Shown: positions 667 to 35,243 of the stretch, in pieces
Layout: each line of letters starts with the position of its first letter
How positions within the stretch are numbered: position 1 is the stretch's first letter
Source of the DNA: a virus
DNA length: 64,000 bases
Reading direction: 5' to 3' (one strand)
Virus record (IMG/VR): IMGVR_UViG_3300028840_002524
Location: 1 to 64,000 of that record
The notes under the pieces: generated by a model
Told to the model about the DNA's origin: nothing
The model's database searches: none
What the model saw: the letters and a program-made list of their open reading frames with translations, nothing else
Made by a program: the position numbers and the translations under genes

Positions 667-3600
667 ATGACACGCTGCCAAGCCTGCGGCCATCCTTCCG
701 TATCCCTCGCCTGTACCTCCTGCGGCACCCTTGCCGAAAACGAGAACGGCCCATCCCTGGGCGGCGGTTGGGCGCCCCATCCATACGATCCCGTCTCGGG
801 TATCTGCTTCGAGATGCACGGCAAGCACCTGCTTCCCGGGGATGAGGTGCGCGTCCAGCTCAAGAACGGCCGCAAGGCCACGGGATATGTGGACTACGCC
901 AGCACGAGCAAGACCCTCTACCTGTGCAAAGAGCATACGCGGCGCACGTGGAAGCGCGGGGTCTGGGTGCAATTCAAGGCCGAGGACATCGCCTCGGTGG
1001 ACATCGTGAAGCTATCCGAGGGCGAGGAGCGGCCGTACGCGCTAACGCTCAGGTCCGAATCCCCCGTGATTGCGGACTGGATCAAAGAGGCGCCCGAGCG
1101 CACCCCCGGCCCGCAGCACGCCCACGAGAACAACAGCCGGGCCGTGACGTTCCCCTTCCGAAAGGGCCTCGAAAGCAAGCTCTTCCGCCTCTTCGAGGAG
1201 CCCATCGGCCTCGGATGCCCCTATCTGTACCGCCTGGAGCCCGACGGTATCCTCATCGCCGACGTGACCGAGGAAACCATCACCCTGTGGAAAACCAACG
1301 ATCCCGGCCGATACCTGGGGTTCGATCCGAGAGAAAATATCCTCGATCACCTCCAAAAAATGGGGAAATCGGGGGTGGTTTTGTTGGGGCGCAAGGACTT
1401 ACGTTCGACTGTCGGTAGCGACAGTCGTTCAATTTTTGAAAATGAACCCACGCCCGCGAGCGTACGCCAGCGGCGCGGCGGCACCTACAGAACCGGCGGA
1501 AAGGCCGGTCCCGCCCGTACAGTCGTGCGCGGATTCCGTTTCCAGGTGGGTGGGAAGAAAGCACGCGGCCGACAGGCCAAGAACAAGGAGAAACAGGCGG
1601 CCGCAAAGCGCGTGGGGAAGCGCGGCCTCGCAAGGCGCATCTCCGCAGCCAAGAAGTGGCACAGGTCCTCAAGGGGCGCGGCCTATCATCGAGCTTTGGG
1701 CGATTACAACCGGGAAAGCATGAAACTGCGGTCCCAGGGGTTGTCAAAGCGCCTTTTCGAGAACGGTCTTGACTACTTTTTCGGAGATCCAGTGCTGTGG
1801 GCCCTCGATAGCCGGTCCCAGGGGGTCCGCACAGTCGCCGCTGGAGACCTGATTTCGGGTCACCTGTCAAGCACCCCTATGGGGGTGGGGGTGAATCCCC
1901 TGGGACCGACCGGGATACCAGATATGTCCACGCACGGGGAAAATTTGGCGTATGGGGAAAATTCTGCCCTGGGTGAGGAGGAGTGGAAGCCGTCGAGGCT
2001 CGGCGTCATCAAACCCGGAATGCGGGTGGTCTCCCGTGTCGGGTGGGTGGGCACGGTTCTCAAGGTGGTGGAAACGTCGAGCAACCCGTACGCGGTCGTG
2101 AAGTGGGACAAGACGGGATCGACGGGGCGGCACACGGTCACGACCCTGCATCCCGTGGAAGAGGATATGTCCACGCACGGGGAAAATTCCGCCCTTTCCG
2201 CGTCGCAGATCCGTGAGGGCGACAGTCCTGAGCTTCTACGGGCCATCGACGATTTCGCCAGCGGAATCACGCGCAAGAAGCCCGGCGGGATGTACGGGGA
2301 GTACATTCGTGCCCTTGGTATCGCCATGATGCGCGGCGGTTCGGGGCCCGATGCGAAAGCGTGGTGGCGGGCAGACCCCAAGGGATTCGACCCGAACTAC
2401 GCCTCGTGGCTCCAGGGCGAGATCGAGAAGCTGTTCAAGCAGCACGGCCAGCCCGTGAAGAAGTTCACCCCCGTGAGCGAGTCGGAAGACCGCTCTGGCG
2501 AGTCCGCAGGCCCGCGAAGCGAAAGCGTCGCCGAAGGGTCCGACGTGGTGAGCGCGGTGCAGGCAGCCATGGTGCCCACAAGGCCCAAGCGCATGCGGAA
2601 CCCGCGCACCGGGAAGATGGGCACCCTTCGCGTCCCGAGGGAACCCTCGTTCGTCGAGGACTTCCGGCCCGAGTTCCCCGAGAACCACGAGATGCAGCGC
2701 AAGCTGGCCGGGCACATCACCAAGGGGGCGTCCGAGTGGCGCGAGGAGAAAGCGCCCAGGGTTCGCCTCCCCTCCGGGTGGAGTGTGAAGCGATGGACCT
2801 ACTGGCGGCGGGACTTCCCGGAGACCCCCATGCGCAAGGAGTCGCAGGCCCTCCTCATCGCGTACCAGGGGAAGCCCGTGTTCACATTGGACTTCCAAGG
2901 CCGCAGCCCGCACGCCCTCGGCGTCGTGAAGGGGTCGAAGGTCGAGCGGCACTACGGCGTGGTGCAGGACAGCACCACGGAGTTCCTGGAAGACCTTCGG
3001 GACACCATCGAGGACGCCGGGTCCGTAGGCGAGGCCGTGGACAGCGTTACGAGCTTCACCCCCGTGAGTGAGTCCGTGAGCGAGGCGGTTGACTATGAGG
3101 ATCCGAAATATGAGGACCTTGTGAGCTTCTTGCAGTCGGCGGGTCGTGAGGCGCTCCAGTATCCCAAGGACAAATGGAGCAGCGTGTACTTCAAAAACGT
3201 GAAAGCGCATCACGTGGCGGAAATCGACTTCCCCGCCTTTAACGCGGCGAAGCGGGGGGTCCGGGGGATCACGAAGGATATGTACGACCACGCCCTCGCC
3301 GGGGCCTTCGAGAACCTGCAAGACGAGATCGAGGGGGCCAGCTCGTTCGAGTGGGGCGATAAGGAGGGGTTCATTGGCCGGGATCCCAAGACGCAGGATT
3401 ACCGAATGTTCCCTGTCGATGAGAGCGTGAGTGAATCCGTGAACGAGGCGGTAGGTCGGGACGCTTTCCACATCTGGCACATCACGGGCGCGAGCAACGC
3501 CAAGGCCATCCAGTCGGGCGGGTTCAAGCCCATGCCCACGAGCAAGGGACCGGGGGTATCGGTGGCCGTGCACCCGGCTGCGGCCCGGGGCCTTTTGCGG

Positions 3601-6600
3601 ACGGCGCAGCGCATGTTCTCGTTCCGGACCTTCGAGGACATGAAAGCGTGGTTCGTGGAGATGGGCGCGGACCCCGACGACCCCAAGTGGGGCAGGGTGG
3701 GGAACGAAGGTGATCCTGCGCGGGCGTACGTCAGTGCCATGTCCCTGTTTCACCCGGCCGTGGGTGGCAGCGCGACCAAGATCCCGAGGAATGAGTTCCT
3801 TTGGGCCGACATCGGGAAGAACCTGCATCGACAGGGGCCGCCGTTCGTGGCCGTCGAGGTCATCGGCAGTGACATGGACTTCGACGCCTATTCCGGATAC
3901 GAGGCCCTGTTCGACAAGCTTGCCGACGCCTACAAGCGGTTCTCGCCCAAGTCCATCGAGGCCGAGGTGTTCCTCGACGGCCGGGACATCGGGATCATGA
4001 ACGAGGTGTGGGACGAGCTGTACGTGGACATCAACAAGACCCCCGAGAAGATCCGCGAATCCCTCTCGGAAGGTGGGTGGTGGAACCCCAAGGAGATGAG
4101 CACCGAAGAGCTCCAGAAGGAACTCGCGGACATCGAGCGCGACTACGGGCGGAACCTCACCATGAGCGGCGGGGCCGTGGACCGTCGGCGCGGGACCATG
4201 ATCAACAAGATGCGCGAGATCAAGCGCGAATTGCAGAGCCGTGGGGTGCGGACGGAATCCGAGGTGATGGACATCGGTTTCCTCCAGGCCAAGGACCCCT
4301 ACACCGTCAAGTACGCCTGGAAACGGCGCGGGCCGATCAAGGTCGTGACGGTGGACGGGAAACGGGCCGCTGAGGAGTTTCTCGCCAGCGTGAAGCGGGA
4401 CGGCGGGAACGGGATGATCGTCAAGGGCGTGAAAGAGTCGGAAGGACCGCGAAGCGAGAGCGTTGTGGCGGAGGAGAAGTACGGAGTGTACCGGGTCTAT
4501 GTCCGCTACGGGAAGTACGGAGACAAGAAGCCGGTCCCCTACTATCTGGCAGGGACGCCATCCAGCATCCGCGAGCTGTTCGCCGATCCCGAGACGGCGG
4601 AGTACGACGAGGACGATAACAAGCTCATGCCGTACAAGATGGCGTGGGAACGCCCTGCTCGCTCTGAGGAGTCGGCCGTCACCGAAGCGAAGGAATACGT
4701 CCTTTGGGGGCTTCCCAAGGGCTCGAAGGATCAGATCGACGCCAAGGTGCTTCTCTCGAACGGGCGCAGCATGCGCGACATCGAGAAGGTCAAGAAGCTG
4801 GCCGGGCGCGACGGGTGGCACACGTTCCGGGTCCAGGTGATCGACCTCTCGAAGCCCTTCGACGCGGGTGCCGCGTTCGCCGGGGCCGTCGGCGAAGCCG
4901 TCAAGGGAATGAAGAACCTCACCTTCCTGCTCAACAAGCCCGAGGCGCCCATCGAGATGCGCGGCCGGTCGAAGAAGGGCTACATGGCCGTTTTCAAGGA
5001 GGGGAAGCACTACAAGGTGGCGCACGTGCCCACGGGCCTCGTGGCCTCCCCGCCCTTCCGCCTGCAAGCGGACGCGGCGGCTCTGGCCGTCCAGATCGAG
5101 GAGGAACTCGGGTCGAAACTCGACTTCCCGGCGGATCGGAAGCCCACCGATGTTCTCAAACGCATCGCGGACATCGTGATCGAGTACCGGATGGGCAAGC
5201 CCTTCGGCTACTGGGAGAGCGACGAGGACGGCGTGGCACCCCTGTTCGAGGGCCTTTTCGAGAGCTACAAGGCCGGGTGGATGAAGCTCACCCCCGCCGA
5301 GAAAAAGACCATGATCGAGGTGGTCAGGGCGCAGTACAAGACGCGCAGGAACGTCCCCTCGCAGCCCTACCGGGATGACTACGCGCCCATGCGCCGGGCG
5401 TTCGGCGTTCCCGCCGCCCTGGAACACAGCGGAGAGGAGCTGCCCGATCACTACTACGAAGCGTTCCGGTGGGCGTGGCAGATGGTCCAGCGCGGGGCCG
5501 ACCCCGACAAGTCCATCCCGGGAAAGATCGTGTACGAGGGCCTTTCCGAGAGCGGAGTTACGGTCAGGTACATGGGCGGTGAGCGCAGGCGTGGCCGGGG
5601 CGGCCTCCGTGGGCGCTCCATGGGCCGTGGCCCGGCCTCCTATCCGTTCGAGTTCGACCGGGGAATGGAAGATGTGGTATCCGAGCTGCGCACCTACCTC
5701 AAGGGGAAGCGGTTCAAGACCGATAACGTCGATTCGCTGACGTTCCTCGTGGGCCGTAAGGGCGCCACGGCCGCCGTCGCGTGGCTGAAAGACAAGGGGG
5801 TCCCCATCGACTACGACCTCCAGGATATGTCCGGGCCCGGCGAGGCCAAGCCTTTCGAGAGCATCCAGGAGGCCCTCCCTCGCGGGTTCAGCGTCGAGGT
5901 CGTGCAGTCGCGGAAGAACCCCGACTGGATCAAGGTGTCCGTGGAGGGCGACTTCCGGGGCGAGCGCGTGTACGGCGAGACGCAGCCCTTCCACATCGGG
6001 ATCAGCAAGCCCACCAGGAGACTCGTGGGCCAGATCACGCAGGCCGCGTTCAAGCGGGGCGAGTACGGGAAGGGCGTGCCCATGGGCCTCCAGGGCAAGC
6101 TCGAAGCCGCCGTCCTCGACGCCCTTGAGAAACACGCGGTCGAGAGGGGCATCTCGTACGCGCACCTCGAAGGGCTCGCCGAGGCCACCCGCAGGCCAAA
6201 GAAGCCCAGGGGCACCAAGACCAAGAAATTCGTGATGTACTTCCCCACCGAGCAGGACGCCATCGACTACGCCAGGGCGTTCGGCTTCAAGCCGGGGGAG
6301 ACGCGGGAGGAGAAACTCGGGTGGACCGTGGACGTGCGCCGGGGCGGCCCGGCCATGCGGTCCGATTTCATCTATACCGAGCCCAACCCTGACTTTGAGA
6401 CGTTCCTCCGGGCGTGGGTGGGCGAGCACCACGGACCGGCCATGGCCGACAGGGTGGCCGACGACTACCTGCGGATCTTCGCGGGGGCCAAGAAACCCAC
6501 GCCTTTCGAGGAGCGGCAGGCCGCCTCCATGAAGAAGCTCTACAAGGACCAGTACGGCAAGGAGCCGGGGCGCGTGAAAGCGCCCAAGGGGTCCGCAGCG

Positions 6601-9600
6601 GCGGCGCGGTTCAGGCTGCCAAGGGGCGTGCGCGTGCCCGGCGGAATGTACGCGGTGGGCCTCGCGGCCGGTCCGAACAAGGACTACCACCGGGGTTCCT
6701 GGAACGCCGAAGTGTACATCCCGCTCACGTTCGAGGTGGTGAGCACCACGGACGCGGCGGTGGACGCCGTGCACAGGTTCACAGGAAAGAACGATCTCGG
6801 CGGGAGCAACTTCTTCGAGCCGAACCGGCCCAACGGCACCCGGGCAGCCCGGAACGACCGGGCCGGGATCGTGTTCGACTCGGGCGGAATGGCTGTGGGA
6901 CGGGTCACCTACGGGGGCACCTTCATCCCCGCCGACTCACCCGGGTTCATGCGCGAGGGCCTCGAAGAGGCTGGAAAGGGACGGGCGCAGGTCATTCGAG
7001 GGATCCAGGCCGAACTCACCAAGATCATGAAGGACTTCGAGCGCGGGAAGTACAAGTCCCAGTACGACGATGTGGACGCCGTGGACGTGCACCTCCAGGT
7101 GCTCAACGGCAAGTGGAAGGTGTGGGTGGGCGAGGTTCCCGCCTCGGAGCGGCGGAAAGGGTACTGGACCTCCGAGGACTCCTGGTACTCCGTGAGCGAC
7201 GGCGAGTCGGCCAACGACCTAAAGGTCACGGCCGAGGAGATGTTCTACGACCTCGTGGGCAGGTACAGCGGCAAGTTCGAGGAGTCCGCGCCCATCGCCG
7301 AGTTCGAGCCCAGGCTCAAGCTCCCGGCCGATCCCACCGACCGGCCCAGAACCTACAAACCCAACAGAAGCGAGAAAAGCGTCATTCGCCGCACGGTGCG
7401 CGACGCCCTGGCGGTGACCTACTTCGACTCCGTGAATCAGGCCGTGTCCACCGTGGGCGACGCCATCGGGCGCCTCGGGTACCAGTTTGACGAACCCCTC
7501 TCGGGGCGGCAGCCCAAGCGGCCGGGCGAGACCGGCCGGGTGGCGCTGCATCTCCAGCGCATGACCAACGACCCCTACTGGCCCCTCGACCTGACCACAG
7601 GTCCGGTCCAGTTCACCTTTTACGTCATGCCGAACGGCAAGGTCGAGGCGGTGGGCTACTACACCGAGGGCGCCGAGGAGCGCCCCAACCCGGTCGTGGA
7701 GGGGATCAACGATCCTCACATCTTCAAGGCCGTATTCCTTGCGGGCGGCCCGGGTTCGGGCAAATCCTTCATTGCGAACCAGATGTTCAAGGGCACCGGG
7801 CTCAAGTTCCTGAACAGCGACCTCGCGTTTGAGCACCTGCTCACCAAGCGGGACCTCCCATTCGACATTAACCCGGACAACGAGGAGGTTTACGCCAAGC
7901 AGATGCAGGCCCGGGGCCGCGCCAAGGAGCTCACCAAGCTGCGGCGTCAGCTCTGGCTCGACGGGATGCTCGGGCTCGTGGTGGACGGAACGGGGAAAGA
8001 CTACGACAAGATCGCCAAGATGGCGACCAACCTCAAGGGCCTCGGGTACGACACGAGCATGGTGTTCGTGAACACGTCCCTCGACGTGGCCCACCAGCGG
8101 AACAAGGACCGGAAGCGGTCCGTCCCGGCCGACGTGGTGAACGATTCGTGGAGGCAGGTCCAGTCCAATATGGGCAAGTTCCAGGCGTTCTTCGGGAGCA
8201 AGAACTTCAAGATCGTGGACAACAGCAAGCCCCTCGACAAGCAGGGCATCCAGGAGCTGGGGGTGAACCTGCGCCGGGCGGCCATGAAGATGACCGACGG
8301 ACCCATCGAGAACCCCGTGGGGCAGGCCATCGTGAACACCCTGCACAAGACCGGCGGAAAAACCATGAGCGACATCGCCAACGCCCAGACCGAGGCGGCC
8401 GCGAGGATGCACGGGTACCTTGGCACGTTCATCGCCGAGTTCAGGGGCCTCGACAGCGCCGCCCTCCGGGTCCTTCTGGCCGAGACCACGGTGGACGCAG
8501 AGGTCCGGGAGATCATGGAACTTCGGAAAGACCTCGCCAAGGCGGAGGCCGAGGGCGACGAGACCAAGGTGGCGGGCATTCGGTACGCCCTCGGGATGGC
8601 CGAGGCCGCGCTGGAGGTCGCCCAGGGCGAGGAGGGCCTGGAAGCGGAGGAAGAGCTCCAGGACATGGGGGTTACGTTCTACAAGGAGGGACGGCCATCG
8701 ACGGTGATGGGGCCCTATCCGACGGTTTCGGCCGCCATGCTCGCGGCTGACCGGGTGTATCCCGTGGAAATAGGGGAACCGTGGGGAGATACCATCGACT
8801 CTCGCCAGCGGCGCGAGACGGTGGACGGCTATGTCGAGACCATGCCGTGGGTTACGGCCGAGGTCCTCAGCGTGGAGCCCGGTGTGGTCATGTACCACGA
8901 GGGTTCCGTGGGGGCGTCCCTCGACAGGGGCCTCCTCGAAGGGCTGCGCACCCGCGTGCGCCCCGTGGCCGACCCGTTCCTCCTCCCCGAGGGGGTCACG
9001 GCGGCACAGAAAGCGGTGGTAAAGGACCTCCGTAAGTTCTTCAAGAAAAAGAAGATAAAGGTCCGGTACAAGAGCCTCGCCACCCAGGGGCCGTGGGTCG
9101 AGGTCAGGGTGGACCAGGGGAAGGACTTCAAACCGTGGCTGAGTGGGGCAGAGCTCAAGAACTTTCCCGATGACATCCGGTCCACGGCCGTGCAGGTCCT
9201 CGGGGGCGCCCCGGGGCAACTCTCCTACGGGAACGCCCAGGGGAACATGATCGCCATGTTCCCGGAGCGGTGGTGGGACTTCCTCACCCGCATGGGCGAG
9301 AAGGTCACGCCGGTGGCCGAATCGGTGGGTGTGATGGACCTCTCGGGGGTGCAATCCATCCTCAAGGGGGCCGGGGGCAAGATCGAGCACGCGGCCGAGA
9401 AGCTAGCCGAGCTCTGGGTCAACGCGGCCGGGGCGGTCGCCCTGTTCATGAGTTACGCCCAGAAAGCCGGGGTTACCGTCGAAGTGGCCCGGAAAGCGGC
9501 GGGCGTGCTCTCGGGCATGACCGAGGCGGAGATCGAGGAGGCAATGCCCTCCTGGGGGTACACGGGCGGAACACCTGTGGGCGTGCCGCGCACAAGGGGG

Positions 9601-12600
9601 CGCAAGACGTTCCCGAGCGAGCGTCAGATCAAGATCGCGGCCAAGCAGGCCGGGACCTCGTACGAGGACGCCTGGGTGATCGCCCGAGACTACTTCGCGT
9701 ACGCCATCCCCATCAACCAGATCATCAAGACGCATCCGGGCATGGCACCGGCGGAGGTCACCGGGGTGGTGGCCTACCTCCTGACCAAGTTCGAGCAGCC
9801 CACCGGGCACCGCAGGGAGGGCCTCGTGCACCTCTCGGCGGCCATCACCGAGGCGTGGTACGACGTGGAGCAGCGGTCCATCTCGCGCTGGCGTGAAGCC
9901 ACGGAGCGGATCGGCAACATGCTCAAGTCCAAGCAGACGGTGTACGCGATCACGGCCGCCCTGGATTCGGCTGCCGAGGACGCGGTGAAGGAGGCCCAGA
10001 CCCTCCGAGGGGCCGAGAAGGAGGCATTCCTCGACCTGGGCGCCCGCTACATCGCAATCGCCCAGACCCTCAAGGCGTCGAAGCCCTACGCGGACGCCAT
10101 GAAGGAGCTCCTCCAGGTGGAGGTGGCTCTCGATTTCCTGGAGGGGATGCTCACCGGCGAGGCCAAGAACGCCTTTGAACACCTCATCAAGGACGGGTAC
10201 GACACGGACCGCTTCGTGCCGGTCGTGGCCGTCGGCGAGGAGGTCGGGCAGGCTGGCCTGGGCTGGACCGACGGGGAGGCGACCCTCTGGGAATCCTACG
10301 TTGTCCACCGGGGAATCCTGGAAAGCAAGGAGTACCGCGACAAGGACGGCGTGGAATACGAGCAGTTCTCCGAGGGCGGGGACGTGTACGTGTTCAACCG
10401 GATCTTCCCGGGCAGCATCCAGATTTTCACGCCCCTGGGCGAGGAGATCAGGCCCGACACCTGCGGCGTGTGCGGAAGCACCCCGGCGGGGGAGATGTAC
10501 CACGGGCCGAAGCTGTGCGCCGACTGCCACGCGGTGGTCTCCGAGAAGATCAAAGCCGAGAAGGAGCCCCGGGAAGGGCTGCACACGGCGACGGCCAAGA
10601 AGTGGTGCGAGGAGGCCGGGGTAGGCAAACGCCGCAAAAGCGGCAAAGATCGCATCGAGAACATGGCCGACATTCTTTCCAAGGCCAAGGGCAAGTACGC
10701 CGAGGCGGTGAGCGAGCGCAGCGTCGTGGAAGTCATCGCTCGGCAGGTGGACAAGGGCAGGATCACGGCCGAGGTCGCCGAGCGGCTTCTCACCGAGGCC
10801 GAGCTGCCCACGGACGTGCCCCGGCGCATCCTGCTCCCGACCGAGCCGGTGGACCACGACTTCGAGACGGCCGAGGCCATCGAGGACTGGTTCGAGGACT
10901 GCCGGGAGACGTTCAGGTTCGACAGCCGGGAAGCCATGCCCCACGGCGTGGCCTACTTCGGCGAGAACGAGGTCGTGGTCGTGGCCTACGACCATCTCCT
11001 CTCGGAGGACGCCCGCGACGCGGTGATCCAGGCGGCCGATGCGCAGCGCGTATGGGACGGGCTCATTCCCGTCGGCGATGCCAGCACGCCGTTCCACTCT
11101 CTCCTCGTGCGGGAGGGGGAGGCCGATCTCGTGCGGGCCCAGGGATTCACGACGGAGCACCGCACCGACCTCGAAAAGCGTAGGCGCGTGCGGTTCATCC
11201 AGGCCGGGGTCGAGAACTTCGTGCCCGGGTCCGTCAAGACGGCATACCTCTCGGACGGGACCGAGATCACCTTCGGGACGCCGACGGCCGAGAAGGACGC
11301 CCTCCTTGCCAAGGCGTGGGAGGAGTTCGACGGGACCGTCAGCGGGAAGGACCCCCTCGAAGTCGAGGAGGGGCTTTTCCGCCACTACACCGGCGCCCCG
11401 AGCGGCCTGGGCGAGGCCGCCGACGCCGCTCTCCAGAAGGTCACAGCCCTGGACAACGCCACCGTGAGCGAGGCCCCGGCTCTGTGGGCCCGGCTCCAGA
11501 CGGAGGGAACCCGGGTTCAGTCGATCATCTTCCCGGCCGACAAGAACGAGAAGGAGGCGACGGAGGGGGCGTCGGCCCTCGGGTACACGCCCGTGGAGGT
11601 GGGGAAGGTGGAGCGGAACGTCCGTGTCGGCGTGCGCGAGCCCGTGGTCGGGGCGCCCACCAGGGCGCTCTCATTCGGAGAGGGGATCACCGTGATCCTC
11701 CAGGGGGCGCAGGAAAACACGGTCCGAGTCTACGACGATCCGTACGAACCGGAACGCCTCCTCCGGGAGATCGCCCTCCACAACCTCGTGGAAGGGGCCG
11801 ACAAGGTAGCCCCCATGGGGCCGCGATCCTGGGCCCTGGGCTATCCCGACAACAGCGCCTCCCTCCTCGTGTACTTCCCGAGGCACGGGATCGCCCGGAT
11901 GTTCACCCGGGAGGACCTGGGCATCCGGTTCGAGGGGGAACTCAGCGAGCAGGTCACGGGCATGCCGGTGGCGCCGCCCGAGACCGAGGCCGAGTCCATG
12001 GACCAGAAGCTCGACAGCATCGTGCGCAAGCTCGTGCTGAACGGCAGCCTCGACGCCCTCCAGGATGTGGCGTTCGACGATGACACGGGGTCCATTTACC
12101 TGTTCTTCTCGGCCGCCATCACGAGGGAGGAAGCCGAGGACATCACCCAGGACCTCGGCAACGAGTACCAGCAAACGCGGCTCGTGGCGTCGCCCGATCA
12201 GTCCCTCGACGGCGAGGTGGGAGAGTCCGATTGGTGGGTTGTGTTCGTGCCGGGCGAGGACGAAACGGGCGCCCCGGGCGAGCCCGACCCCACGCGGTGG
12301 GGCGCCACCAAGGTGCCCGAGCAACAACCGCAGGGCCTCTCCCAGTTCATGGACAAGGACGCGGTGCAGTCCATCGCCAAGGGTGTCAGCCTGGACAAGG
12401 CCATCGACGCCCTCACAACCGAGAGCCTCGCCGAGGTGGACTTCAATCCCCTCTCGTTCGCGCTGGCGTTCGCCGCGCACCACGGCCTCGACGAAACGTC
12501 CCTCGCCTCCTCTCCTCTCGCGCCGGGGACCGTGTTCCTGACGGTGAAGAACGAGGCGGGCACAATGAAGCGCGTTGACTTCTCAGCCCCGGGAGTGGGC

Positions 12601-12726
12601 GACGGGGTGAACGTGGTGGTCACCGATGCGGCCAACGGCCAGAAGGAAACGGTGGGCCACTTCAAGAACCCCACCCTGACCGAACTCCTTGGAAAGCTCG
12701 GAGACAACCCGGCATGGAAAGCGTAA
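667..12726 (+). CDS. Giant (4019 aa) multi-module putative internal head/cargo polyprotein
   Basis: Uninterrupted 12-kb ORF with high-GC codon bias. Contains Zn ribbons, an SH3-like module, an ART-like module (HIT...GF...GVS...EAEVF) and a P-loop kinase (GGPGSGKS), separated by Glu-Ser/Ala/Gly linkers. The true start codon is uncertain. Confidence 0.8.
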   Translation: MTRCQACGHPSVSLACTSCGTLAENENGPSLGGGWAPHPYDPVSGICFEMHGKHLLPGDEVRVQLKNGRKATGYVDYASTSKTLYLCKEHTRRTWKRGVWVQFKAEDIASVDIVKLSEGEERPYALTLRSESPVIADWIKEAPERTPGPQHAHENNSRAVTFPFRKGLESKLFRLFEEPIGLGCPYLYRLEPDGILIADVTEETITLWKTNDPGRYLGFDPRENILDHLQKMGKSGVVLLGRKDLRSTVGSDSRSIFENEPTPASVRQRRGGTYRTGGKAGPARTVVRGFRFQVGGKKARGRQAKNKEKQAAAKRVGKRGLARRISAAKKWHRSSRGAAYHRALGDYNRESMKLRSQGLSKRLFENGLDYFFGDPVLWALDSRSQGVRTVAAGDLISGHLSSTPMGVGVNPLGPTGIPDMSTHGENLAYGENSALGEEEWKPSRLGVIKPGMRVVSRVGWVGTVLKVVETSSNPYAVVKWDKTGSTGRHTVTTLHPVEEDMSTHGENSALSASQIREGDSPELLRAIDDFASGITRKKPGGMYGEYIRALGIAMMRGGSGPDAKAWWRADPKGFDPNYASWLQGEIEKLFKQHGQPVKKFTPVSESEDRSGESAGPRSESVAEGSDVVSAVQAAMVPTRPKRMRNPRTGKMGTLRVPREPSFVEDFRPEFPENHEMQRKLAGHITKGASEWREEKAPRVRLPSGWSVKRWTYWRRDFPETPMRKESQALLIAYQGKPVFTLDFQGRSPHALGVVKGSKVERHYGVVQDSTTEFLEDLRDTIEDAGSVGEAVDSVTSFTPVSESVSEAVDYEDPKYEDLVSFLQSAGREALQYPKDKWSSVYFKNVKAHHVAEIDFPAFNAAKRGVRGITKDMYDHALAGAFENLQDEIEGASSFEWGDKEGFIGRDPKTQDYRMFPVDESVSESVNEAVGRDAFHIWHITGASNAKAIQSGGFKPMPTSKGPGVSVAVHPAAARGLLRTAQRMFSFRTFEDMKAWFVEMGADPDDPKWGRVGNEGDPARAYVSAMSLFHPAVGGSATKIPRNEFLWADIGKNLHRQGPPFVAVEVIGSDMDFDAYSGYEALFDKLADAYKRFSPKSIEAEVFLDGRDIGIMNEVWDELYVDINKTPEKIRESLSEGGWWNPKEMSTEELQKELADIERDYGRNLTMSGGAVDRRRGTMINKMREIKRELQSRGVRTESEVMDIGFLQAKDPYTVKYAWKRRGPIKVVTVDGKRAAEEFLASVKRDGGNGMIVKGVKESEGPRSESVVAEEKYGVYRVYVRYGKYGDKKPVPYYLAGTPSSIRELFADPETAEYDEDDNKLMPYKMAWERPARSEESAVTEAKEYVLWGLPKGSKDQIDAKVLLSNGRSMRDIEKVKKLAGRDGWHTFRVQVIDLSKPFDAGAAFAGAVGEAVKGMKNLTFLLNKPEAPIEMRGRSKKGYMAVFKEGKHYKVAHVPTGLVASPPFRLQADAAALAVQIEEELGSKLDFPADRKPTDVLKRIADIVIEYRMGKPFGYWESDEDGVAPLFEGLFESYKAGWMKLTPAEKKTMIEVVRAQYKTRRNVPSQPYRDDYAPMRRAFGVPAALEHSGEELPDHYYEAFRWAWQMVQRGADPDKSIPGKIVYEGLSESGVTVRYMGGERRRGRGGLRGRSMGRGPASYPFEFDRGMEDVVSELRTYLKGKRFKTDNVDSLTFLVGRKGATAAVAWLKDKGVPIDYDLQDMSGPGEAKPFESIQEALPRGFSVEVVQSRKNPDWIKVSVEGDFRGERVYGETQPFHIGISKPTRRLVGQITQAAFKRGEYGKGVPMGLQGKLEAAVLDALEKHAVERGISYAHLEGLAEATRRPKKPRGTKTKKFVMYFPTEQDAIDYARAFGFKPGETREEKLGWTVDVRRGGPAMRSDFIYTEPNPDFETFLRAWVGEHHGPAMADRVADDYLRIFAGAKKPTPFEERQAASMKKLYKDQYGKEPGRVKAPKGSAAAARFRLPRGVRVPGGMYAVGLAAGPNKDYHRGSWNAEVYIPLTFEVVSTTDAAVDAVHRFTGKNDLGGSNFFEPNRPNGTRAARNDRAGIVFDSGGMAVGRVTYGGTFIPADSPGFMREGLEEAGKGRAQVIRGIQAELTKIMKDFERGKYKSQYDDVDAVDVHLQVLNGKWKVWVGEVPASERRKGYWTSEDSWYSVSDGESANDLKVTAEEMFYDLVGRYSGKFEESAPIAEFEPRLKLPADPTDRPRTYKPNRSEKSVIRRTVRDALAVTYFDSVNQAVSTVGDAIGRLGYQFDEPLSGRQPKRPGETGRVALHLQRMTNDPYWPLDLTTGPVQFTFYVMPNGKVEAVGYYTEGAEERPNPVVEGINDPHIFKAVFLAGGPGSGKSFIANQMFKGTGLKFLNSDLAFEHLLTKRDLPFDINPDNEEVYAKQMQARGRAKELTKLRRQLWLDGMLGLVVDGTGKDYDKIAKMATNLKGLGYDTSMVFVNTSLDVAHQRNKDRKRSVPADVVNDSWRQVQSNMGKFQAFFGSKNFKIVDNSKPLDKQGIQELGVNLRRAAMKMTDGPIENPVGQAIVNTLHKTGGKTMSDIANAQTEAAARMHGYLGTFIAEFRGLDSAALRVLLAETTVDAEVREIMELRKDLAKAEAEGDETKVAGIRYALGMAEAALEVAQGEEGLEAEEELQDMGVTFYKEGRPSTVMGPYPTVSAAMLAADRVYPVEIGEPWGDTIDSRQRRETVDGYVETMPWVTAEVLSVEPGVVMYHEGSVGASLDRGLLEGLRTRVRPVADPFLLPEGVTAAQKAVVKDLRKFFKKKKIKVRYKSLATQGPWVEVRVDQGKDFKPWLSGAELKNFPDDIRSTAVQVLGGAPGQLSYGNAQGNMIAMFPERWWDFLTRMGEKVTPVAESVGVMDLSGVQSILKGAGGKIEHAAEKLAELWVNAAGAVALFMSYAQKAGVTVEVARKAAGVLSGMTEAEIEEAMPSWGYTGGTPVGVPRTRGRKTFPSERQIKIAAKQAGTSYEDAWVIARDYFAYAIPINQIIKTHPGMAPAEVTGVVAYLLTKFEQPTGHRREGLVHLSAAITEAWYDVEQRSISRWREATERIGNMLKSKQTVYAITAALDSAAEDAVKEAQTLRGAEKEAFLDLGARYIAIAQTLKASKPYADAMKELLQVEVALDFLEGMLTGEAKNAFEHLIKDGYDTDRFVPVVAVGEEVGQAGLGWTDGEATLWESYVVHRGILESKEYRDKDGVEYEQFSEGGDVYVFNRIFPGSIQIFTPLGEEIRPDTCGVCGSTPAGEMYHGPKLCADCHAVVSEKIKAEKEPREGLHTATAKKWCEEAGVGKRRKSGKDRIENMADILSKAKGKYAEAVSERSVVEVIARQVDKGRITAEVAERLLTEAELPTDVPRRILLPTEPVDHDFETAEAIEDWFEDCRETFRFDSREAMPHGVAYFGENEVVVVAYDHLLSEDARDAVIQAADAQRVWDGLIPVGDASTPFHSLLVREGEADLVRAQGFTTEHRTDLEKRRRVRFIQAGVENFVPGSVKTAYLSDGTEITFGTPTAEKDALLAKAWEEFDGTVSGKDPLEVEEGLFRHYTGAPSGLGEAADAALQKVTALDNATVSEAPALWARLQTEGTRVQSIIFPADKNEKEATEGASALGYTPVEVGKVERNVRVGVREPVVGAPTRALSFGEGITVILQGAQENTVRVYDDPYEPERLLREIALHNLVEGADKVAPMGPRSWALGYPDNSASLLVYFPRHGIARMFTREDLGIRFEGELSEQVTGMPVAPPETEAESMDQKLDSIVRKLVLNGSLDALQDVAFDDDTGSIYLFFSAAITREEAEDITQDLGNEYQQTRLVASPDQSLDGEVGESDWWVVFVPGEDETGAPGEPDPTRWGATKVPEQQPQGLSQFMDKDAVQSIAKGVSLDKAIDALTTESLAEVDFNPLSFALAFAAHHGLDETSLASSPLAPGTVFLTVKNEAGTMKRVDFSAPGVGDGVNVVVTDAANGQKETVGHFKNPTLTELLGKLGDNPAWKA
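1408..1425 (-). promoter_or_regulatory. Reverse-orientation copy of the 18-bp palindrome with its AAAAATTGAACG flank, inside the giant ORF
   Basis: ACTGTCGGTAGCGACAGT followed by CGTTCAATTTTT. Confidence 0.6.
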
Positions 12727-14426
12727 GCAGGCGACTCTCGGCCCGGCGCATGGCTATGGCCGAACGGGTGCATATCCCCCTGGGGTCTCTGGGAGTCCCC
12801 AGGGACGATATGCCCCAGATACGGAGCGACCTTGTTCCCGAATTCCTGCGGTGGCTCACGGCGCAGCGCGTCCCCCACCGCCGAACGCGGGTTCAGGTGG
12901 ACAAGATCAAGGCCACGCAGCGCGAGATCGACATCGACAAGGTGGCCTCGATGGTGGCCTCCGCCCCAGAGAAATCTCTCGCCAAGCCCGTGATCATCTC
13001 AAAGGACTTCTACCTCCTCGACGGGCATCACCGGTGGCTCGCCCTCGTGAACAAGGACCCGGCCTACAAGATCGAGGCCGTCCAGGTCGGCATTCCCATC
13101 TGGAAGCTCCTCGCCTACGCCCGCGAGTTTCCGCAGGCTTCCTACAAGCAGATGGGCGAGGCCGAGGAGCAGAGCGTCTACAAAAAGCGCATGCACAAGG
13201 CGCTCAAGGGGTGGAAGAAGCTTTTCCCCGTCAAGAAGGAGGGCCACAGCACAGTCGGCACCCTCTACTTCGACACGCCCGAGGAGGCGCTCAAGTGGAA
13301 AGAGGATGCGGCCGCGTTCATCGAGCGCATCAAACCCATCGGGGCCACCGAGCGAGCGCCCCAGCTCGTGAAGAAATGGGAGATGCTCAAGGACGATTTC
13401 GAAAAGTGGGTGGGGTGGGAAGACCCTCGCCGCAACCTCTACTCTTTCGAGAAAGCGGCTCGTGACATCGCTTGGACGTTCTGGGATTACCGCAAGGAAC
13501 TCCTCGACGTGTTCATGTATCAGGTCGAGCCCATCGCCGGGCCTCTCGGGCAGTCGGAGCTCAAGGGCAAGCGCGAGATGACCGACGTGAAGCGCATTGG
13601 CCCGTTCCATCTCGGGATGGCGGCCTCCGGGCCCTGGGGGAAACCGCTCGAACCGGATGAGGAGATGATCGCCAATTACAAGCGCCTATCCGACCGGCTA
13701 CCGACCATCGTAGCGAAGCTCAAGCGCAACGGTCTCCTCCAATACATGAAGGGCGTGCGGTTCCGCGTCGAGGAGGCGAAGGGGGAGGCCGGGGCAACAT
13801 ACGACGCCGTGAACAGGATGGTCCACATCAAGAACCGGGCCGACGATCACGCCGTATACCACGAACTCGCCCACCACCTGGAGCACCTGCTGAGGAAGGG
13901 ACAGCTTCACGGCGGAGCACGGCCGTGGCGCGACTGGCGGTTCTGGTTCGAGGGCACTGACGCCAAGTTCACCAAGAAAGACTACGAGGCCGTCGGGATC
14001 CACCCGGGCGAGAATCGCCACATCGAGGGGCGTCTCAAGCGGGCGCAGGTTCCGCAGTACGTGAAAATGTTCGTCAAGGCCGTGCACTACGGCTACTACG
14101 CCGCCCGCTCCCCCGGCGCGGGATGGCGATACACGGATTACATCCCGGCCAAGCACATGGGGGAGGCCCTTCAAGGTCTCATCGGTCGGCCCATCAACAC
14201 GGGGATTCCCTCGGCCTACGGCCACGTGAACGCTGGCGAAGCGTTTTCCGAGACCATGGCCTACTTCATGCTCGGGAAGCTCAAGAAGGGCACCGGTCTG
14301 TGGATGCTCAAGCAGATATTCCCCACCCTCAAGGAGTCCGATGAAAAAGACAGCAAAGAAAAAGAGCGCATCGTCGAAGCGGCCGAGCGGCGCGTCAAGC
14401 ACAGGCGCGAAGCCGAGCGTTCCTGA
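12714..14426 (+). CDS. ParB/Srx-like N-terminal domain fused to a zincin-like (HExxH) metallopeptidase
   Basis: PVIISKDFYLLDGHHRW (ParB-like), VYHELAHHLE, and downstream SAYGHVNAGEAFSE carrying the third-ligand Glu. Start may be 12750 or 12756. Confidence 0.75.
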   Translation: MESVSRRLSARRMAMAERVHIPLGSLGVPRDDMPQIRSDLVPEFLRWLTAQRVPHRRTRVQVDKIKATQREIDIDKVASMVASAPEKSLAKPVIISKDFYLLDGHHRWLALVNKDPAYKIEAVQVGIPIWKLLAYAREFPQASYKQMGEAEEQSVYKKRMHKALKGWKKLFPVKKEGHSTVGTLYFDTPEEALKWKEDAAAFIERIKPIGATERAPQLVKKWEMLKDDFEKWVGWEDPRRNLYSFEKAARDIAWTFWDYRKELLDVFMYQVEPIAGPLGQSELKGKREMTDVKRIGPFHLGMAASGPWGKPLEPDEEMIANYKRLSDRLPTIVAKLKRNGLLQYMKGVRFRVEEAKGEAGATYDAVNRMVHIKNRADDHAVYHELAHHLEHLLRKGQLHGGARPWRDWRFWFEGTDAKFTKKDYEAVGIHPGENRHIEGRLKRAQVPQYVKMFVKAVHYGYYAARSPGAGWRYTDYIPAKHMGEALQGLIGRPINTGIPSAYGHVNAGEAFSETMAYFMLGKLKKGTGLWMLKQIFPTLKESDEKDSKEKERIVEAAERRVKHRREAERS

Positions 14427-15186
14427 GATTCATTCGAAGTCCAGGCTCGTGCCGGTCAAGTCGCTCAAGCCAAACGACTGGAACCCCAACGTCGTGCCCG
14501 ACGATATTCTCGTGTCCATCGTGGCCGGGATTCACAAGCACGGTTTCGTGGGCGCCGTCCTCGTGTGGAAGGGGCGCAACATCATCATCGACGGCGAGCA
14601 CCGCTGGATCGCCGCCAAGAAATCGGGCCTCACCAAGATCCCGATCATCGAACTCGAAGTGGATGAGGCACGAGCGCGGGAGCTCACCATTGCGTTCAAT
14701 CAGAAGCGTGGGTTCTTCGACCCCGACCGTCTGACCGACGTGGTGCAGTTCATCGCCGACAAGACCGACGCGGCCCGCAAGGACCTCCAGGTCATGCTCG
14801 GATTCTCGGCCAAGGAAATCGACGGGATGCTCCACGACGCAGCGAACGAGGCCGAGAAAGAGCTCTCCAAGAAGATCAAAGAGGAGGGAGGAAATCCCAA
14901 GGTCGAAACGCGGCCGCCCCCTCCTCCGCTTCCCCCGCCGCCCGGTGATCCCGAGGACGACGGCGGCGCAGCGGCCGCTGGCGACAGCGACTCCGCCCCC
15001 GGGTACGGCGACGGCGCTCCGACGGAGGAGAACCCAACGGGAAAATTCCCGTTCACGTTTTACGCCCCGTCCATGGACGACTACGAGCGGATGCGTGATC
15101 TCTTCTATTCAGACGGCGAGTTCTCGTTCTCGAAGCTAAACGAAATGCTGGAATCCGCCGTAGAGCATTCACAAGCCGCCGAGTAG
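14341..15186 (+). CDS. ParB-like nuclease-domain protein
   Basis: LKPNDWNPN...IIIDGEHRW motif; Pro-rich linker. Confidence 0.8.
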   Translation: MKKTAKKKSASSKRPSGASSTGAKPSVPEIHSKSRLVPVKSLKPNDWNPNVVPDDILVSIVAGIHKHGFVGAVLVWKGRNIIIDGEHRWIAAKKSGLTKIPIIELEVDEARARELTIAFNQKRGFFDPDRLTDVVQFIADKTDAARKDLQVMLGFSAKEIDGMLHDAANEAEKELSKKIKEEGGNPKVETRPPPPPLPPPPGDPEDDGGAAAAGDSDSAPGYGDGAPTEENPTGKFPFTFYAPSMDDYERMRDLFYSDGEFSFSKLNEMLESAVEHSQAAE

Positions 15187-15367: not shown

Positions 15368-18300
15368 GTGCCTGGAAAAGCCACTCTTGCGTTTCGTCTT
15401 TACTGCTCGCTTGCCGCTTCACCGAAGCCCATTAGCGAGTTTACCCTCCTCAACAACACGGACCTTCTGACCGCCCTTCACGAGGCGGGTGCTCACCTCG
15501 AAGCGGATCTCTTCGACGCCCTGAGCGAGGACAGCAAAAGGTGGGTCCGGGACGTGGTTCTCCACATGGAGCCGTTCGACCTCAAGGAGGTCGATCTCAC
15601 CGGCAAAGTGGACTTCGACGAGTTCTGGTCCTTCCCGACCGACGAGGCGGCGCGGAGTTTCGCGTCGGGCCTCCCGGCCACGGTGGACAAGGCTGTTCGA
15701 AACAACCTCGTAGGATTCCGTGGGGTCCTGGATCAGCCCATCGAGCAGCGGGCGATCAAGGCGGGCGGCCAACTGTCCTCCTATCTGGAGTGGCACAGCG
15801 CCGTCAACGTGCAGGACACGCCTGCCCGTCCGATGGAAGCCGACATGAACTTCCCGGCGCGGCTGTGCGCCCGGTACGACCCCCGCGACGTGCGAACGCT
15901 CGCGGCCGAATACCCGGCCGATCACGTGATGCCGCAGCGCGAGAACTTCGCCAAGTTCGTCGAGGCCCTCGGCGCCATCGAGCCCCACGACGACTTCGAC
16001 CCCGTGCTGGAGCGGTTCGTCAAGGTGGCGTGGCCCTCCGAACTCATGGACAACCTCAAGGCCGCGATCCCTTCCACGGGCCTGAACTTCGAGGACCTAC
16101 GGGAGCAGGTGAGCTTCGTGGCGCGGCACCTACCGCGCACCCTCCTGTCCCTGAACCCTTCTGACCTTTCCTCCCACCTGGGCGAGCATCTCGCCCACGA
16201 GCTCGTGGAGTTCATCCACTGGGCGTTCCCGGGTGTTTCCGAAGAGGACCCCGACCCCGAGGGCGACGCCGACGCCGATGGCGAGCAGGAAGCCGACGCC
16301 GAGGGGGATGCGGAAAAGGCCAAGATGGGTGAGTCCGTGCAGATCGAGCCGAACTACGCCCTCGTGTACGTGAGCGGACGCGACGACGTGGCGAAGCTCG
16401 TGGGCCCCGCCATGGCCTCGAAGGAAATGAAAAACTGGACGGACGTGGACGGCCTGTCGAATTGGCTCATGTACGGCCACCGCATCCGCAACGTAGGCGT
16501 CATGCGGCCGAAAGACCTCGGCGGATACGCCATCTACATCCCCAAGAACCAGCTCTCCGACCTCAAGATGGTGTTCGGGGAACTCGGGATCGCGGAATCG
16601 AGCGTCCGGGTAGTGACCGCCGACGACGCCGCAAGCGTGGCGGAAGGGGGCGTCCGAGACACCCTCGGCCGGTGGTACCGCGTGATCAAAGAAGAGCTCT
16701 ACAACACCCTCATGGTCTCCGAAGCCGAGTACGCCCTGGCGTGGCTCGCGCACAAGGCGGGATTCCGCCCGGAGCCGTCCCTCGGCGAGTTCGGCCTCTC
16801 TTCGCAGCAGGCCGCCACCTCCCGCCGGGCAGCCGAGCGCATGCACGACAAGTACCCGGGTTTCGCCGGGGAAAGCGCGGGCGCCGTCAAGAGGCTCGCC
16901 AAGGTGCGGGCCCCTGCCCTCCAGGAGTACAAGCCCAGGAAGGGCAAACACACCCCGAAGCAGCGCAAGCACGGCGGCGGGAACTACGTGTTCCCTCCGA
17001 CCGAGAAGGACCCTTACGGCCGCTACCCCATGACCAACGCGGCCCAGGCCCGCAACGCCCTCGCCCGTGCCGGGGCCTGTGACGAGCAGTCCTCCTGGAT
17101 GAAAATCCGGGGAATCTCCTGCGCGGACCTCAAGAAGAAGGTCGCCAACGCCGCCAAGAAGGACTTCCCGTCCATCGAGGTAGGCGAGCGCGTGGGAGAA
17201 GCGTTCCTCGACAAAAACTGGGTCTCGTACCTGATCCCGGTGGGCGAAACCCCGGCCCTTCACAAGCAACTCCGCGCCATCAACAACAGCCAGATCGTTC
17301 CGAAGCTGGCAAAGAAAGCCCACATCCGCCCCGACATGATTTTCGGGGTAGAGACGCCGGTGGGGTTCCGCATCTTCGTGTACTCCGGGAACAAGGGCGG
17401 CGTCTTGGACATCTTGCAGCAGGCCGGGATCATGGACGCCTACGAAGGGCCATGCTCCCCTCCCGTCCAGGAAGCATATCCCGAGGGCGACACACCTCTG
17501 ACCTTCCTGTTCCGGGGCGTCTCGGCAGACCACGCCCGTGAGTGGGCCGAGGAATGGCAGGGCCTCGGGTACATCACCTCCTTCAACGTCTCTTCCTCCG
17601 GGAACGACACCACCGTCAGTATGATGGCCGGGAACCCGGGGCAGGTCCGGATCGCGGGGCTCATGCTCGGGAACTACATCGAGCCCGACGATCCCGCCTA
17701 CGGCACCCCTTCCGAGGGCGTAGAAGAGAGCCGGTCCTCCGCGCTCACGGCAGTGACCAACTACGCGGGGGTGATCAGCCGCACGGACGGAGAAGGGTAC
17801 GCCGACTTCGCCCACGCGATGGCCGACCACTACCTCTCCGGTGCCGCTCTTCCCGACCCGAAGCTCTGGGCACGGAAGTACGGCGACTTCGACCCCATCT
17901 GGGCCGACCTCGTGGGCGAGAAGGTCCGCGAGATCCTTTCGCAGCACGGCATCAACGTGCGCGAGAGCGTTTCCGAAGCCGTCATGAAGTCCATCGCCTA
18001 CATCGACCTCGACAAGAAGGAGGCGGATCGTCTTCGGGAAGCCTACGACAAGGCGAACCCGTGGGACCCCTCCTGGGGCGAGCAGTACACGATGGAATCC
18101 GACATCGTGGACCTCCTGAACAAGAACGGTCGCTTCGGCGACATGCGGGCGGAGTACGGCAAGGGCAGCGACCGCTACGCAATGCGGCTTTGGGTCGATC
18201 CGAGCCACGTGCGGCAGCTCTCGCGCCTCCTCTCGGCGGCCTACGGGCTGCGCGTGAAGGAAAGCACCGCTCTGGTGTTCGACTCCGAAGCGGTTCTCCA

Positions 18301-21300: not shown

Positions 21301-21517
21301 CAAGAGCGACGTGGAAATGCCGGGGGAGATCACGGGACCGACCATGGCGGGGCAGGAGAAGCCGCGCCTCATCGGTGGGCAGACCGTTCGGGTCAAAGGC
21401 GTGTACTTCGGAGAGGACGGGAAACTCCGGGTGAACCTGGACGAACCCATCGAGATGACGGTGTACGCCGACGACATGATGACCGCCATCCAGAGCGGCC
21501 AGCTCGTGGCCGACTGA
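15368..21517 (+). CDS. Second large (2049 aa) multi-module putative head core/cargo polyprotein
   Basis: GGAGG RBS before GTG. Modules are separated by VRESVSEA, VGEA and VAEG-type linkers. Contains acidic and Pro-rich stretches plus CPHC and CPFC pairs, and shares a module with the 4019-aa protein. Confidence 0.8.
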   Translation: MPGKATLAFRLYCSLAASPKPISEFTLLNNTDLLTALHEAGAHLEADLFDALSEDSKRWVRDVVLHMEPFDLKEVDLTGKVDFDEFWSFPTDEAARSFASGLPATVDKAVRNNLVGFRGVLDQPIEQRAIKAGGQLSSYLEWHSAVNVQDTPARPMEADMNFPARLCARYDPRDVRTLAAEYPADHVMPQRENFAKFVEALGAIEPHDDFDPVLERFVKVAWPSELMDNLKAAIPSTGLNFEDLREQVSFVARHLPRTLLSLNPSDLSSHLGEHLAHELVEFIHWAFPGVSEEDPDPEGDADADGEQEADAEGDAEKAKMGESVQIEPNYALVYVSGRDDVAKLVGPAMASKEMKNWTDVDGLSNWLMYGHRIRNVGVMRPKDLGGYAIYIPKNQLSDLKMVFGELGIAESSVRVVTADDAASVAEGGVRDTLGRWYRVIKEELYNTLMVSEAEYALAWLAHKAGFRPEPSLGEFGLSSQQAATSRRAAERMHDKYPGFAGESAGAVKRLAKVRAPALQEYKPRKGKHTPKQRKHGGGNYVFPPTEKDPYGRYPMTNAAQARNALARAGACDEQSSWMKIRGISCADLKKKVANAAKKDFPSIEVGERVGEAFLDKNWVSYLIPVGETPALHKQLRAINNSQIVPKLAKKAHIRPDMIFGVETPVGFRIFVYSGNKGGVLDILQQAGIMDAYEGPCSPPVQEAYPEGDTPLTFLFRGVSADHAREWAEEWQGLGYITSFNVSSSGNDTTVSMMAGNPGQVRIAGLMLGNYIEPDDPAYGTPSEGVEESRSSALTAVTNYAGVISRTDGEGYADFAHAMADHYLSGAALPDPKLWARKYGDFDPIWADLVGEKVREILSQHGINVRESVSEAVMKSIAYIDLDKKEADRLREAYDKANPWDPSWGEQYTMESDIVDLLNKNGRFGDMRAEYGKGSDRYAMRLWVDPSHVRQLSRLLSAAYGLRVKESTALVFDSEAVLQSIAEGVFEHLNRPVSVSVDAIGGGILRGFVEPTAALELFAEALTHLGEGTEVEIDKNESIFRAKGLPEGLGWDTPGDLYPADGPEALGEDSLFAPTKVKPSGETDNPSNRAAASAKKVMSKNGPKKMAKDPKEVGRGEKGDKAGGKKPKTIPRDASGGPGTSGESDPSADYTKATVGVKGSLFTVLGKKKGEKGPQAKGGEAKGKVVTPGVAIKSFECTCPHCSNSVKENVLKRFAPALLEQDPVAGGGATAVSPANDRPGNIEAPPGAASTPPKSEPAKEPEKPTEADPTKRQDDEEEGGPTQGLVCPFCGKEIPRDVLKGMMGELLAQLAAQLQQGSTKPEEPEEEKPEDEEEEEEETPEEEPAPEPEPEQQPAQAPAGETPPAAPMAPAAPGKPKESIEERGRTDFVQQFMGFDITYYNARQGFEANSAEELQDAIEARYPGSFRGYVLDAVRSLIVKVPVKQADKFDQMLRQQLLKVKSPSVISSSVQTKDGEPVVETEQEPGEPVIEAGGSGMGRFRQGAPVRGTDSLSVGDLLVNVSKQFGAVNVARVTDVGGIGGVVTAIFVDPNNPSKKRMPSDREFAIHDFDTSDYFFAEGVESEEPIAVGEIGVDNDGIPAGVRVRVLDSHRGKAKVDAGGRVIDVAAEDVLVYPSGSTIEECLAALERGESLGAVAMRRLTSRTKAVRLAALGETTEGSSGKYLSMYFPNVEACHKAKAAVGALGSKITDGTEVSFAVEPLNGESTRLRTIAEQLGGAVLRTITPPGPVAEQLDIDTDSTDLGEVNNLFQGALADIKGARDLLIKAQTGDMARAVALLKSMGAKEKVMNALQGVADSIEEHGTNLKETLGALDKAHDVFSKAYPDAPNGAPEEEPAPENGEMPPAEEPAPENGNGEPMPVEEPPVEAPPAEEQPPPAVSPRPVESMNKILGEMRRSAHWPLIRYALSEDDFQTFGNFMRSISPKITAHEVSAVFETIQEVTEMDMALESGIVHGAHFLAKSDVEMPGEITGPTMAGQEKPRLIGGQTVRVKGVYFGEDGKLRVNLDEPIEMTVYADDMMTAIQSGQLVAD

Positions 21518-33521: not shown

Positions 33522-35243
<1,722 letters not shown>

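Follow-up and report, generated by a model that had tools for sequence, protein, structure and literature searches.

A 4019-amino-acid modular protein of a myovirus with T4 gp21-type cleavage motifs at many module boundaries, a candidate polyprotein of capsid cargo

The DNA analysed here, referred to below as the window, comprises the first 64 kb (64,000 nucleotides, nt) of a virus contig that is 116 kb long and has a GC content of 63% (IMG/VR record IMGVR_UViG_3300028840_002524). The virus is of the myovirus type, with genes for a sheath, a tape measure, a baseplate wedge and a collagen-like fibre, and it has a T4-type head module, in which an S77 prohead protease with a long extension is followed by a Gp23-type capsid protein. 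Positions 667..12726 are occupied by a giant open reading frame (ORF) of 4019 amino acids (aa), P0001, a predicted modular cargo protein that starts with ATG and has GAGG 9 nt upstream as a ribosome-binding site; this ORF and all features given below with coordinates in the form 667..12726 lie on the + strand. An earlier note, made from the sequence alone, had proposed that this protein is a chain of unrelated modules cut apart by the prohead protease.

The ORF is real: in addition to its ribosome-binding site, contigs of two runs (sediment and seawater) tile it with zero differences, and a single contig of 8149 nt covers most of the junctions, with contig joints that have sides of only 21 letters being disregarded. 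The contigs of the two runs break at identical places and are therefore possibly not independent. The giant protein is present on three contigs. In both runs the contig depth is approximately doubled (21 vs. 12) over positions 457–1435, which include the N-terminal part of the giant, and contigs break at 1408–1435; this suggests a co-occurring relative that has exactly the same conserved N-terminus and diverges after it.

The protein begins with a Zn-ribbon (CxxC...CxxC) followed by L-A-E at aa 22–24 (676..741), as seen in the sequence and the family alignment. The site after the ribbon is L-H-E-G in the related genome G001 and V-V-E-A or I-V-E-S in family members, and the ribbon segment is possibly a targeting propeptide. 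Next come the conserved N-module of the family and a basic helical segment (aa ~176–397; 1192..1857), delimited by 41 HMMER matches and BLASTP blocks, and a small module (1919..2183) between 22-nt direct repeats (1919–1940 and 2162–2183) that encode DMSTHGE. The most densely punctuated cargo region spans aa 591–2340 (2437..7686) and consists of modules of ~70–260 aa, with DNA repeats in its linkers at 2454/3045 (FTPVSES), 2500/4435 (ES-GPRSESV) and 5243/5531 (hxEGLxES; h, hydrophobic). A P-loop kinase module (AAA_33/Zeta_toxin-like; 7693..8256) begins right after V-V-E-G; it is the sole Pfam domain in the giant (aa 2354–2520), and its homologue in pelagiphage HTVC008M is a free protein of 220 aa whose start aligns within a few residues of this V-V-E-G. 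Further downstream lie an F-L-E-G junction (aa 3157–3165; 10135..10161), at the equivalent position of which a reading frame of G001 stops and, after 15 nt, another start codon follows, and the conserved C-module of the family (aa ~3745–3925; 11899..12441), defined by BLASTP blocks, by alignment and by an AlphaFold2 (AF2) model of the family member P0014.

That the modules are unrelated to each other agrees with the absence of internal repeats by BLASTP and with the single Pfam domain. Pfam detected no peptidase domain in the giant, and no MuF domain at E up to 0.1, the comparison being with MuF/SPP1 gp7-type head proteins with C-terminal toxins. The PDB sequence search and NCBIfam gave nothing useful. 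With tblastn against cultured phages, aa 1–2000 had no match and only the kinase module was matched in aa 2001–4019; a search by word index, covering both long and short homologues, returned only the proteins P0002 and P0044. No cultured relatives were found in the searches made, the entire giant gave no match in a pattern scan of IMG/VR, and a scan of the genome contigs, likewise without a match, did not identify the host.

The gene for the S77 (T4 gp21-like) prohead protease (24227..26515; 762 aa, including a C-terminal extension of ~540 aa) lies 11.5 kb downstream of the giant ORF and adjoins the capsid gene. Its assignment in the earlier note is confirmed by PF03420 (E 1e-14) and phrog_207 (E 3e-38); its protease domain can be aligned with structure 5JBL of T4 gp21 (E 4.5e-7), with GHLEHP and ISSRG, the catalytic His and Ser positions, kept. 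The Gp23-type major capsid protein (26556..28019; Pfam/PHROG-type library matches) contains L-D-E-T at aa 86–89, which is kept in five relatives ahead of the conserved capsid core and is, judging by this conservation, the likely capsid maturation site. Another candidate for this site, NFVNES, was dropped as not conserved.

We counted the motif [VLIFM]-x-E-[SAG], with residues numbered P3-P2-P1-P1', and took the expected numbers from composition-preserving shuffles; two motifs within six residues were counted as a pair. The giant contains 47 motifs vs. 20.7 expected (2.3-fold, z ~6) and nine clustered pairs vs. 0.8 (11-fold), and the examples listed in the earlier note are all present, within a few codons of where it had placed them. 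The motif density is 1.17 per 100 aa in the giant; the remaining 81 proteins encoded by the genome have a density of 0.48 and together contain 119 motifs vs. 101.6 expected (ratio 1.17). Along the giant, the signal is strongest at aa 591–2340 (23 vs. 8.3), weaker but present beyond this region, and absent from aa 1–590. Within this genome, only the large ORFs in the head cluster, including a second giant ORF described below, and the C-terminal extension of the protease itself are enriched.

The proteases of T4, phiKZ, 201phi2-1 and SPN3US all cut after Glu, and their P3 residues are family-specific (PMC5694885, PMC10052503). When Glu at P1 was replaced with Asp, Gln or Lys, the ratios were 1.0–1.8 with z at most 2.1, and for residues other than S/A/G at P1' they were 0.85–1.2. 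The phiKZ-type form with S/A/G at P3, [SAG].E[SAG], is depleted (ratio 0.4–0.8), which contradicts a reading of the sites as S/A/G-x-E, the specificity that the earlier note had cited for phiKZ gp175. All three of P3 (hydrophobic), P1 (Glu) and P1' (small) are needed for the enrichment, while P2 is free. Tandem sites account for the extended consensus E-[SG]-[VL]-[GS]-E-[AG].

As a positive control, the same test was applied to T4, where it flagged gp22 (10 vs. 3.0), gp67, gp21 and gp23, all known gp21 substrates, and no others; the sheath, tube, portal, Hoc and RnlB were not flagged. The gp22 sites LSES, LTES, ITES and VTEA resemble the linkers of the giant. These data support the motif as a specific, non-random signature of T4 gp21 type.

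An exhaustive HMMER search with aa 1–433 of the giant found 41 proteins. Among them are two further giants of 2488 and 2678 aa and 38 others (205–2118 aa) that share aa ~176–397; most of the 38 also share the C-terminal module corresponding to aa ~3745–3925. The family layout consists of the Zn-ribbon, the N-module (FLEGP...YYRVE...YLGFDPR), strongly basic helices, a variable insert and an acidic alpha/beta C-module, and the members have 35–70% identity and a GC content of 59–71%. The family has no match in Pfam or PHROG, and Foldseek with a model of the family core found no significant match in the PDB and BFVD and no usable match in the ESM Atlas. By its shared N-module, basic segment and C-module, the giant of the window belongs to this uncharacterised family from metagenomes and is expanded by an insertion of ~3400 aa of predicted cargo. 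P0002, an ENA protein of 4044 aa, has the kinase module too, and its relative position is similar, but there is no other similarity to the giant; its motif is not enriched (19 vs. 18.9 expected), which makes it a different kind of giant.

The enrichment might be a chance or compositional artefact of a high-GC protein rich in Glu, Ala, Gly and Ser, or the ORF an assembly chimera, and the small excess over shuffles in the rest of the proteome is the point in favour of such an explanation. However, z is ~6 in each of the three giants, the 38 other family members have 328 motifs vs. 145 expected, and the control motifs are flat; the tiling of the ORF by two runs, the contig spanning most junctions and the presence of the protein on three contigs argue against a chimera. 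We regard this very improbable explanation as refuted for practical purposes.

The position of the motif was compared with module boundaries defined, without use of the motif, as the edges of homology blocks with relatives. In the giant of the window, 9 of the 15 edges lie within 10 aa of a motif vs. 3.0 expected (p about 0.001), and in the two related giants the fractions are 8/12 and 7/12, with 2–3 expected across the three giants (p 0.001–0.005). Family-wide, 106 of the 533 mosaic breakpoints fall within 5 aa of a motif vs. 56 expected, these breakpoints being not mutually independent. The claim that nearly every boundary carries motifs is thus too broad, although most boundaries do. Over the first three quarters of the giant from its N-terminus, the Glu of the motif is conserved in 16 of 22 cases vs. 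about 50% for other Glu residues.

The mosaicism is seen in the comparison with G001, a complete relative of 131 kb with terminal repeats and a capsid protein of 93% identity, which has an ORF of 2678 aa and a separate ORF of 872 aa. The blocks matched in G001 are aa 1–433, 1199–1259, 2219–2606, 2607–2652 (in a different order), 2621–2761 and 2956–4019, and the block of aa 1340–1408 is found in the second giant ORF of G001. The boundary between the two G001 genes maps to the F-L-E-G at aa 3157 of the giant in the window. A paralogous module (aa 524–599 of the giant; aa 793–866 of the second giant of the window) is flanked by motifs in both proteins, and L-S-E-S precedes P0044, the only other homologue of a cargo module. 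In the related locus L021 the kinase module (13538–14116) is not part of the family gene but of the large ORF that follows it, a placement that indicates, by sequence comparison, movement of modules between neighbouring cargo ORFs.

The neighbourhood of the giant is also conserved. Its stop overlaps by 13 nt the start of a 570-aa ORF (12714..14426) with a ParB-like N-terminus (DGHHRW; ParBc_2, E 0.007; phrog_2859) and the HExxH motif HELAHHLEH. The ParB-like module of this neighbour sits inside the family ORF in G004 and P0027, which implies that fusion and fission at linkers recur. A ParB_N protein (14341..15186; library matches) and the second giant ORF of 2049 aa (15368..21517) follow; the latter has similar linkers, such as NVRESVSEA, by the motif test, and contains, by BLASTP, the paralogue of aa 524–599 of the giant. 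A weak "MCP_Sipho" match in this second giant was dismissed, as it sits in a low-complexity acidic tract. In all six records that extend over the necessary distance, the family gene is upstream of the S77 protease. Another 11 loci have, in this order, a large ORF, the family gene, a large ORF (930–1690 aa), ORFs of ~345 and ~290 aa, the S77 fusion (737 to over 1231 aa) and the capsid gene; the large ORFs and protease fusions are enriched 2–3-fold in the motif, and the ~345-aa and ~290-aa ORFs are not.

The analysis shows a specific motif signature located at boundaries, a mosaic protein family, and synteny of the family gene with the protease; from these observations we infer packaging, cleavage, retention and ejection of the cargo, and any effector function, in the following form. 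The giant would be built intact into the prohead core, and the S77 protease, activated in the prohead, would cut after Glu in h-x-E followed by A/G/S at accessible sites between modules. Up to about 30 fragments of 35–376 aa would be released, too large to exit the shell, and would stay with the DNA, as T4 internal proteins do. Insertion, deletion, transfer between the two giant ORFs and fusion or fission at linkers would all be tolerated, owing to the release of each module on its own, and the repeated linker DNA would supply short homologies for module exchange. Weighing the sequence evidence, we assign a probability of about 0.6 to packaging into the prohead with multi-site cleavage by the S77 protease. 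The giant is best explained, by analogy, as a concatenated array of capsid-internal cargo proteins resembling the T4 internal-protein system with features of polyvalent proteins. The broader proposal, that a clade of uncultured myoviruses with T4-type capsids uses polyprotein cargo, with a targeting framework carrying an open-ended chain of modules and the protease releasing them at standard linkers that double as recombination joints, is put forward tentatively, as somewhat short of an even chance.

Two statements of the earlier note have to be restricted. The release of "dozens" of products is an upper bound only: the 47 sites would give 32 fragments of at least 35 aa, and motifs in folded domains are unlikely to be cut. 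The idea of an arsenal of host-takeover or anti-defence effectors finds no support beyond the one P-loop kinase module.

Several observations weigh against packaging and cleavage of the giant. Six of the 15 block edges in the giant of the window have no strict motif nearby, and in the C-terminal 860 aa the motif Glu is conserved in 5 of 11 cases vs. 46 of 77 for other Glu residues. With Thr at P1', the conserved candidate site of the capsid protein does not fit the motif definition used here. Motif flanks are not more disorder-prone than positions elsewhere (TOP-IDP scale). In the AF2 model of P0014 (mean predicted local distance difference test score, pLDDT, 79; over 95 in the N-module and 70–89 in the basic helices), four of the seven motifs are inside folded modules, including the conserved FLEGP, two are in linkers and one is N-terminal. 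Cleavage of copies inside confidently modelled domains is unlikely, so that no more than some of the 47 sites of the giant can be real cut sites. The location of motifs in predicted inter-domain linkers is thus a mixed result for P0014, and the AF2 model of aa 780–1860 of the giant, made without an alignment, has a mean pLDDT of 35 and is unusable for separating linkers from domains. Finally, the neighbouring HExxH protein, a putative peptidase, could be an alternative processing enzyme.

The last point belongs to a second possibility, namely that the giant is an uncleaved multidomain protein in which the motif is a connector kept as a DNA recombination joint, or that it is cut by another enzyme, such as the HExxH neighbour. 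Direct repeats of 20–30 nt with 83–91% identity occur exactly at linkers and flank single modules, and the linker flavour differs by phage (VSESVSEA in the window, ESLGEA/G in G001), as would suit recombination joints. The ParB + HExxH layout of the neighbour resembles that of P1 DdrB, and N4 virion RNA polymerase is packaged unprocessed (PMC5512222). However, the enrichment at the protein level, with P3, P1 and P1' required and P2 free, holds among family members at 35–70% identity and 59–71% GC; such persistence across diverged members means that DNA homology alone is an insufficient explanation. The motif is also enriched in the protease extension and in genuine T4 substrates, and the HExxH region, a putative zincin, matches no peptidase family. 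We consider an uncleaved or differently processed giant unlikely, at about one chance in five.

The protease extension bears on a third possibility. In all loci compared, the S77 protease is fused to a long variable C-terminal extension (24227–26515 in the window; L008 17460–21152; L018 11667–14762; L007 10323–12533). In relatives the fusion reaches 1531 aa of open frame, and the extension, of acidic or coiled-coil character, has a strong enrichment of the motif; by its sequence it is probably a fusion of protease and scaffold, or of protease, scaffold and cargo. The giant itself might likewise be a scaffold or core protein similar to T4 gp22, which organises the interior of the prohead, is cut and is largely expelled before DNA packaging, with the modules as mere spacers. 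The motif signature matches that of gp22, the second giant and the protease extension have acidic, Pro-rich low-complexity tracts typical of scaffolds, and almost no module has a recognisable enzymatic fold. However, the sites are 70–260 aa apart vs. about 25 aa in gp22, and fragments of that size could not leave the shell; the modules include a conserved P-loop kinase, known elsewhere as a free gene; modules turn over between phages with 93% identical capsid proteins, unlike a structural scaffold; and a dedicated protease–scaffold fusion is already present. A scaffold role for the giant is therefore rated as improbable, slightly below the uncleaved or differently processed protein.

The predicted cargo array combines features of several known systems. 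The T4 internal proteins are diverse and have in common only the targeting sequence removed by gp21 (PMC3012670, PMC9026906). As with these proteins (IPI, IPII, IPIII, Alt), the setting includes a Gp23-type capsid protein and an S77 protease, the candidate cut sites are of the hydrophobic-x-Glu-small type, the cargo is diverse, fast-evolving and predicted to be packed with DNA, and a short N-terminal segment ends in L-x-E. In T4, however, they are separate small genes whose products each have a targeting peptide and are cut once, whereas here a single conserved N-terminal part precedes ~30 modules joined into a chain of 4019 aa, with motifs of the cut-site type in between. Domain and family searches found no sequence similarity of the giant to the T4 internal proteins. 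With the T4 scaffolding core protein gp22 the giant shares the motif, which has its highest density in gp22 together with many gp21 cuts, but gp22 has 269 aa, is cut to small peptides and is expelled, while the spacing between sites here corresponds to whole modules.

Polyvalent proteins, which occur in phages and conjugative elements, are predicted to be processed, and the analogy with polyproteins was already drawn for them by Iyer et al. in 2017 (PMC5512222). The giant resembles them in its very large multi-module architecture, head-gene context, ParB partners, mosaicism and predicted proteolytic release. They differ in that their processing is ascribed to embedded zincin or assemblin-like peptidases, whereas no embedded peptidase was detected by Pfam here and the motif fits the separately encoded S77 protease; moreover, only one hallmark-type domain, the P-loop kinase, is recognisable, with the ParB-like module fused in relatives.

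In giant phages, ejection proteins undergo cleavage after Glu at more than one site (PMC10052503, PMC5694885). Like the inner-body and ejection proteins of phiKZ, SPN3US and 201phi2-1, which have S80-type proteases, the giant is predicted to be head-internal and cut after Glu, in their case sometimes at several sites; the protease of these phages cuts its own C-terminus, and the extension of the S77 protease is enriched in the motif. On the other hand, their sites are S/A/G-x-E or A-x-E, mostly in N-terminal propeptides, a form depleted here, and their proteins are separate genes rather than one chain. Eukaryotic RNA virus polyproteins offer a further parallel in one translation product with recurrent short cut motifs and, as predicted here, many products; the differences are the location inside a DNA-phage prohead, an assemblin-fold serine protease acting in trans, and a predicted purpose of delivery and not replication.

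If the cuts occur, the giant would be the first DNA-phage polyprotein with products packed and delivered together. One targeting signal would then load dozens of unrelated proteins at fixed stoichiometry, forming a plug-and-play array of delivered proteins, which would explain the turnover of cargo sets between near-identical phages. With about 40 representative family members and a conserved gene cluster defined, the idea is testable. The simple sequence test validated on T4 predicts substrates of Glu-specific prohead proteases in uncultured phages, and the orphan modules form a pool of candidate early-acting phage proteins.

Several further observations concern the head module and the rest of the genome. 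A beta-rich stretch of the capsid protein (aa ~163–262; also in L011 and L012) matches other ORFs of ~350 aa upstream of the protease in relatives. The gene order departs from that of T4 in that the T4-type portal gene lies beyond the window (G000:C1:91298–92389), ~65 kb away from the genes for the protease and the capsid protein. The capsid gene is immediately followed (28345–30317) by two ORFs, one radical-SAM-like, with a Pfam E of 2e-6 that narrowly misses the cut-off, and the other the third ParB-like ORF. The protein encoded at 33522–35243 is a collagen-like tail fibre that matches many tail fibres in PHROG.

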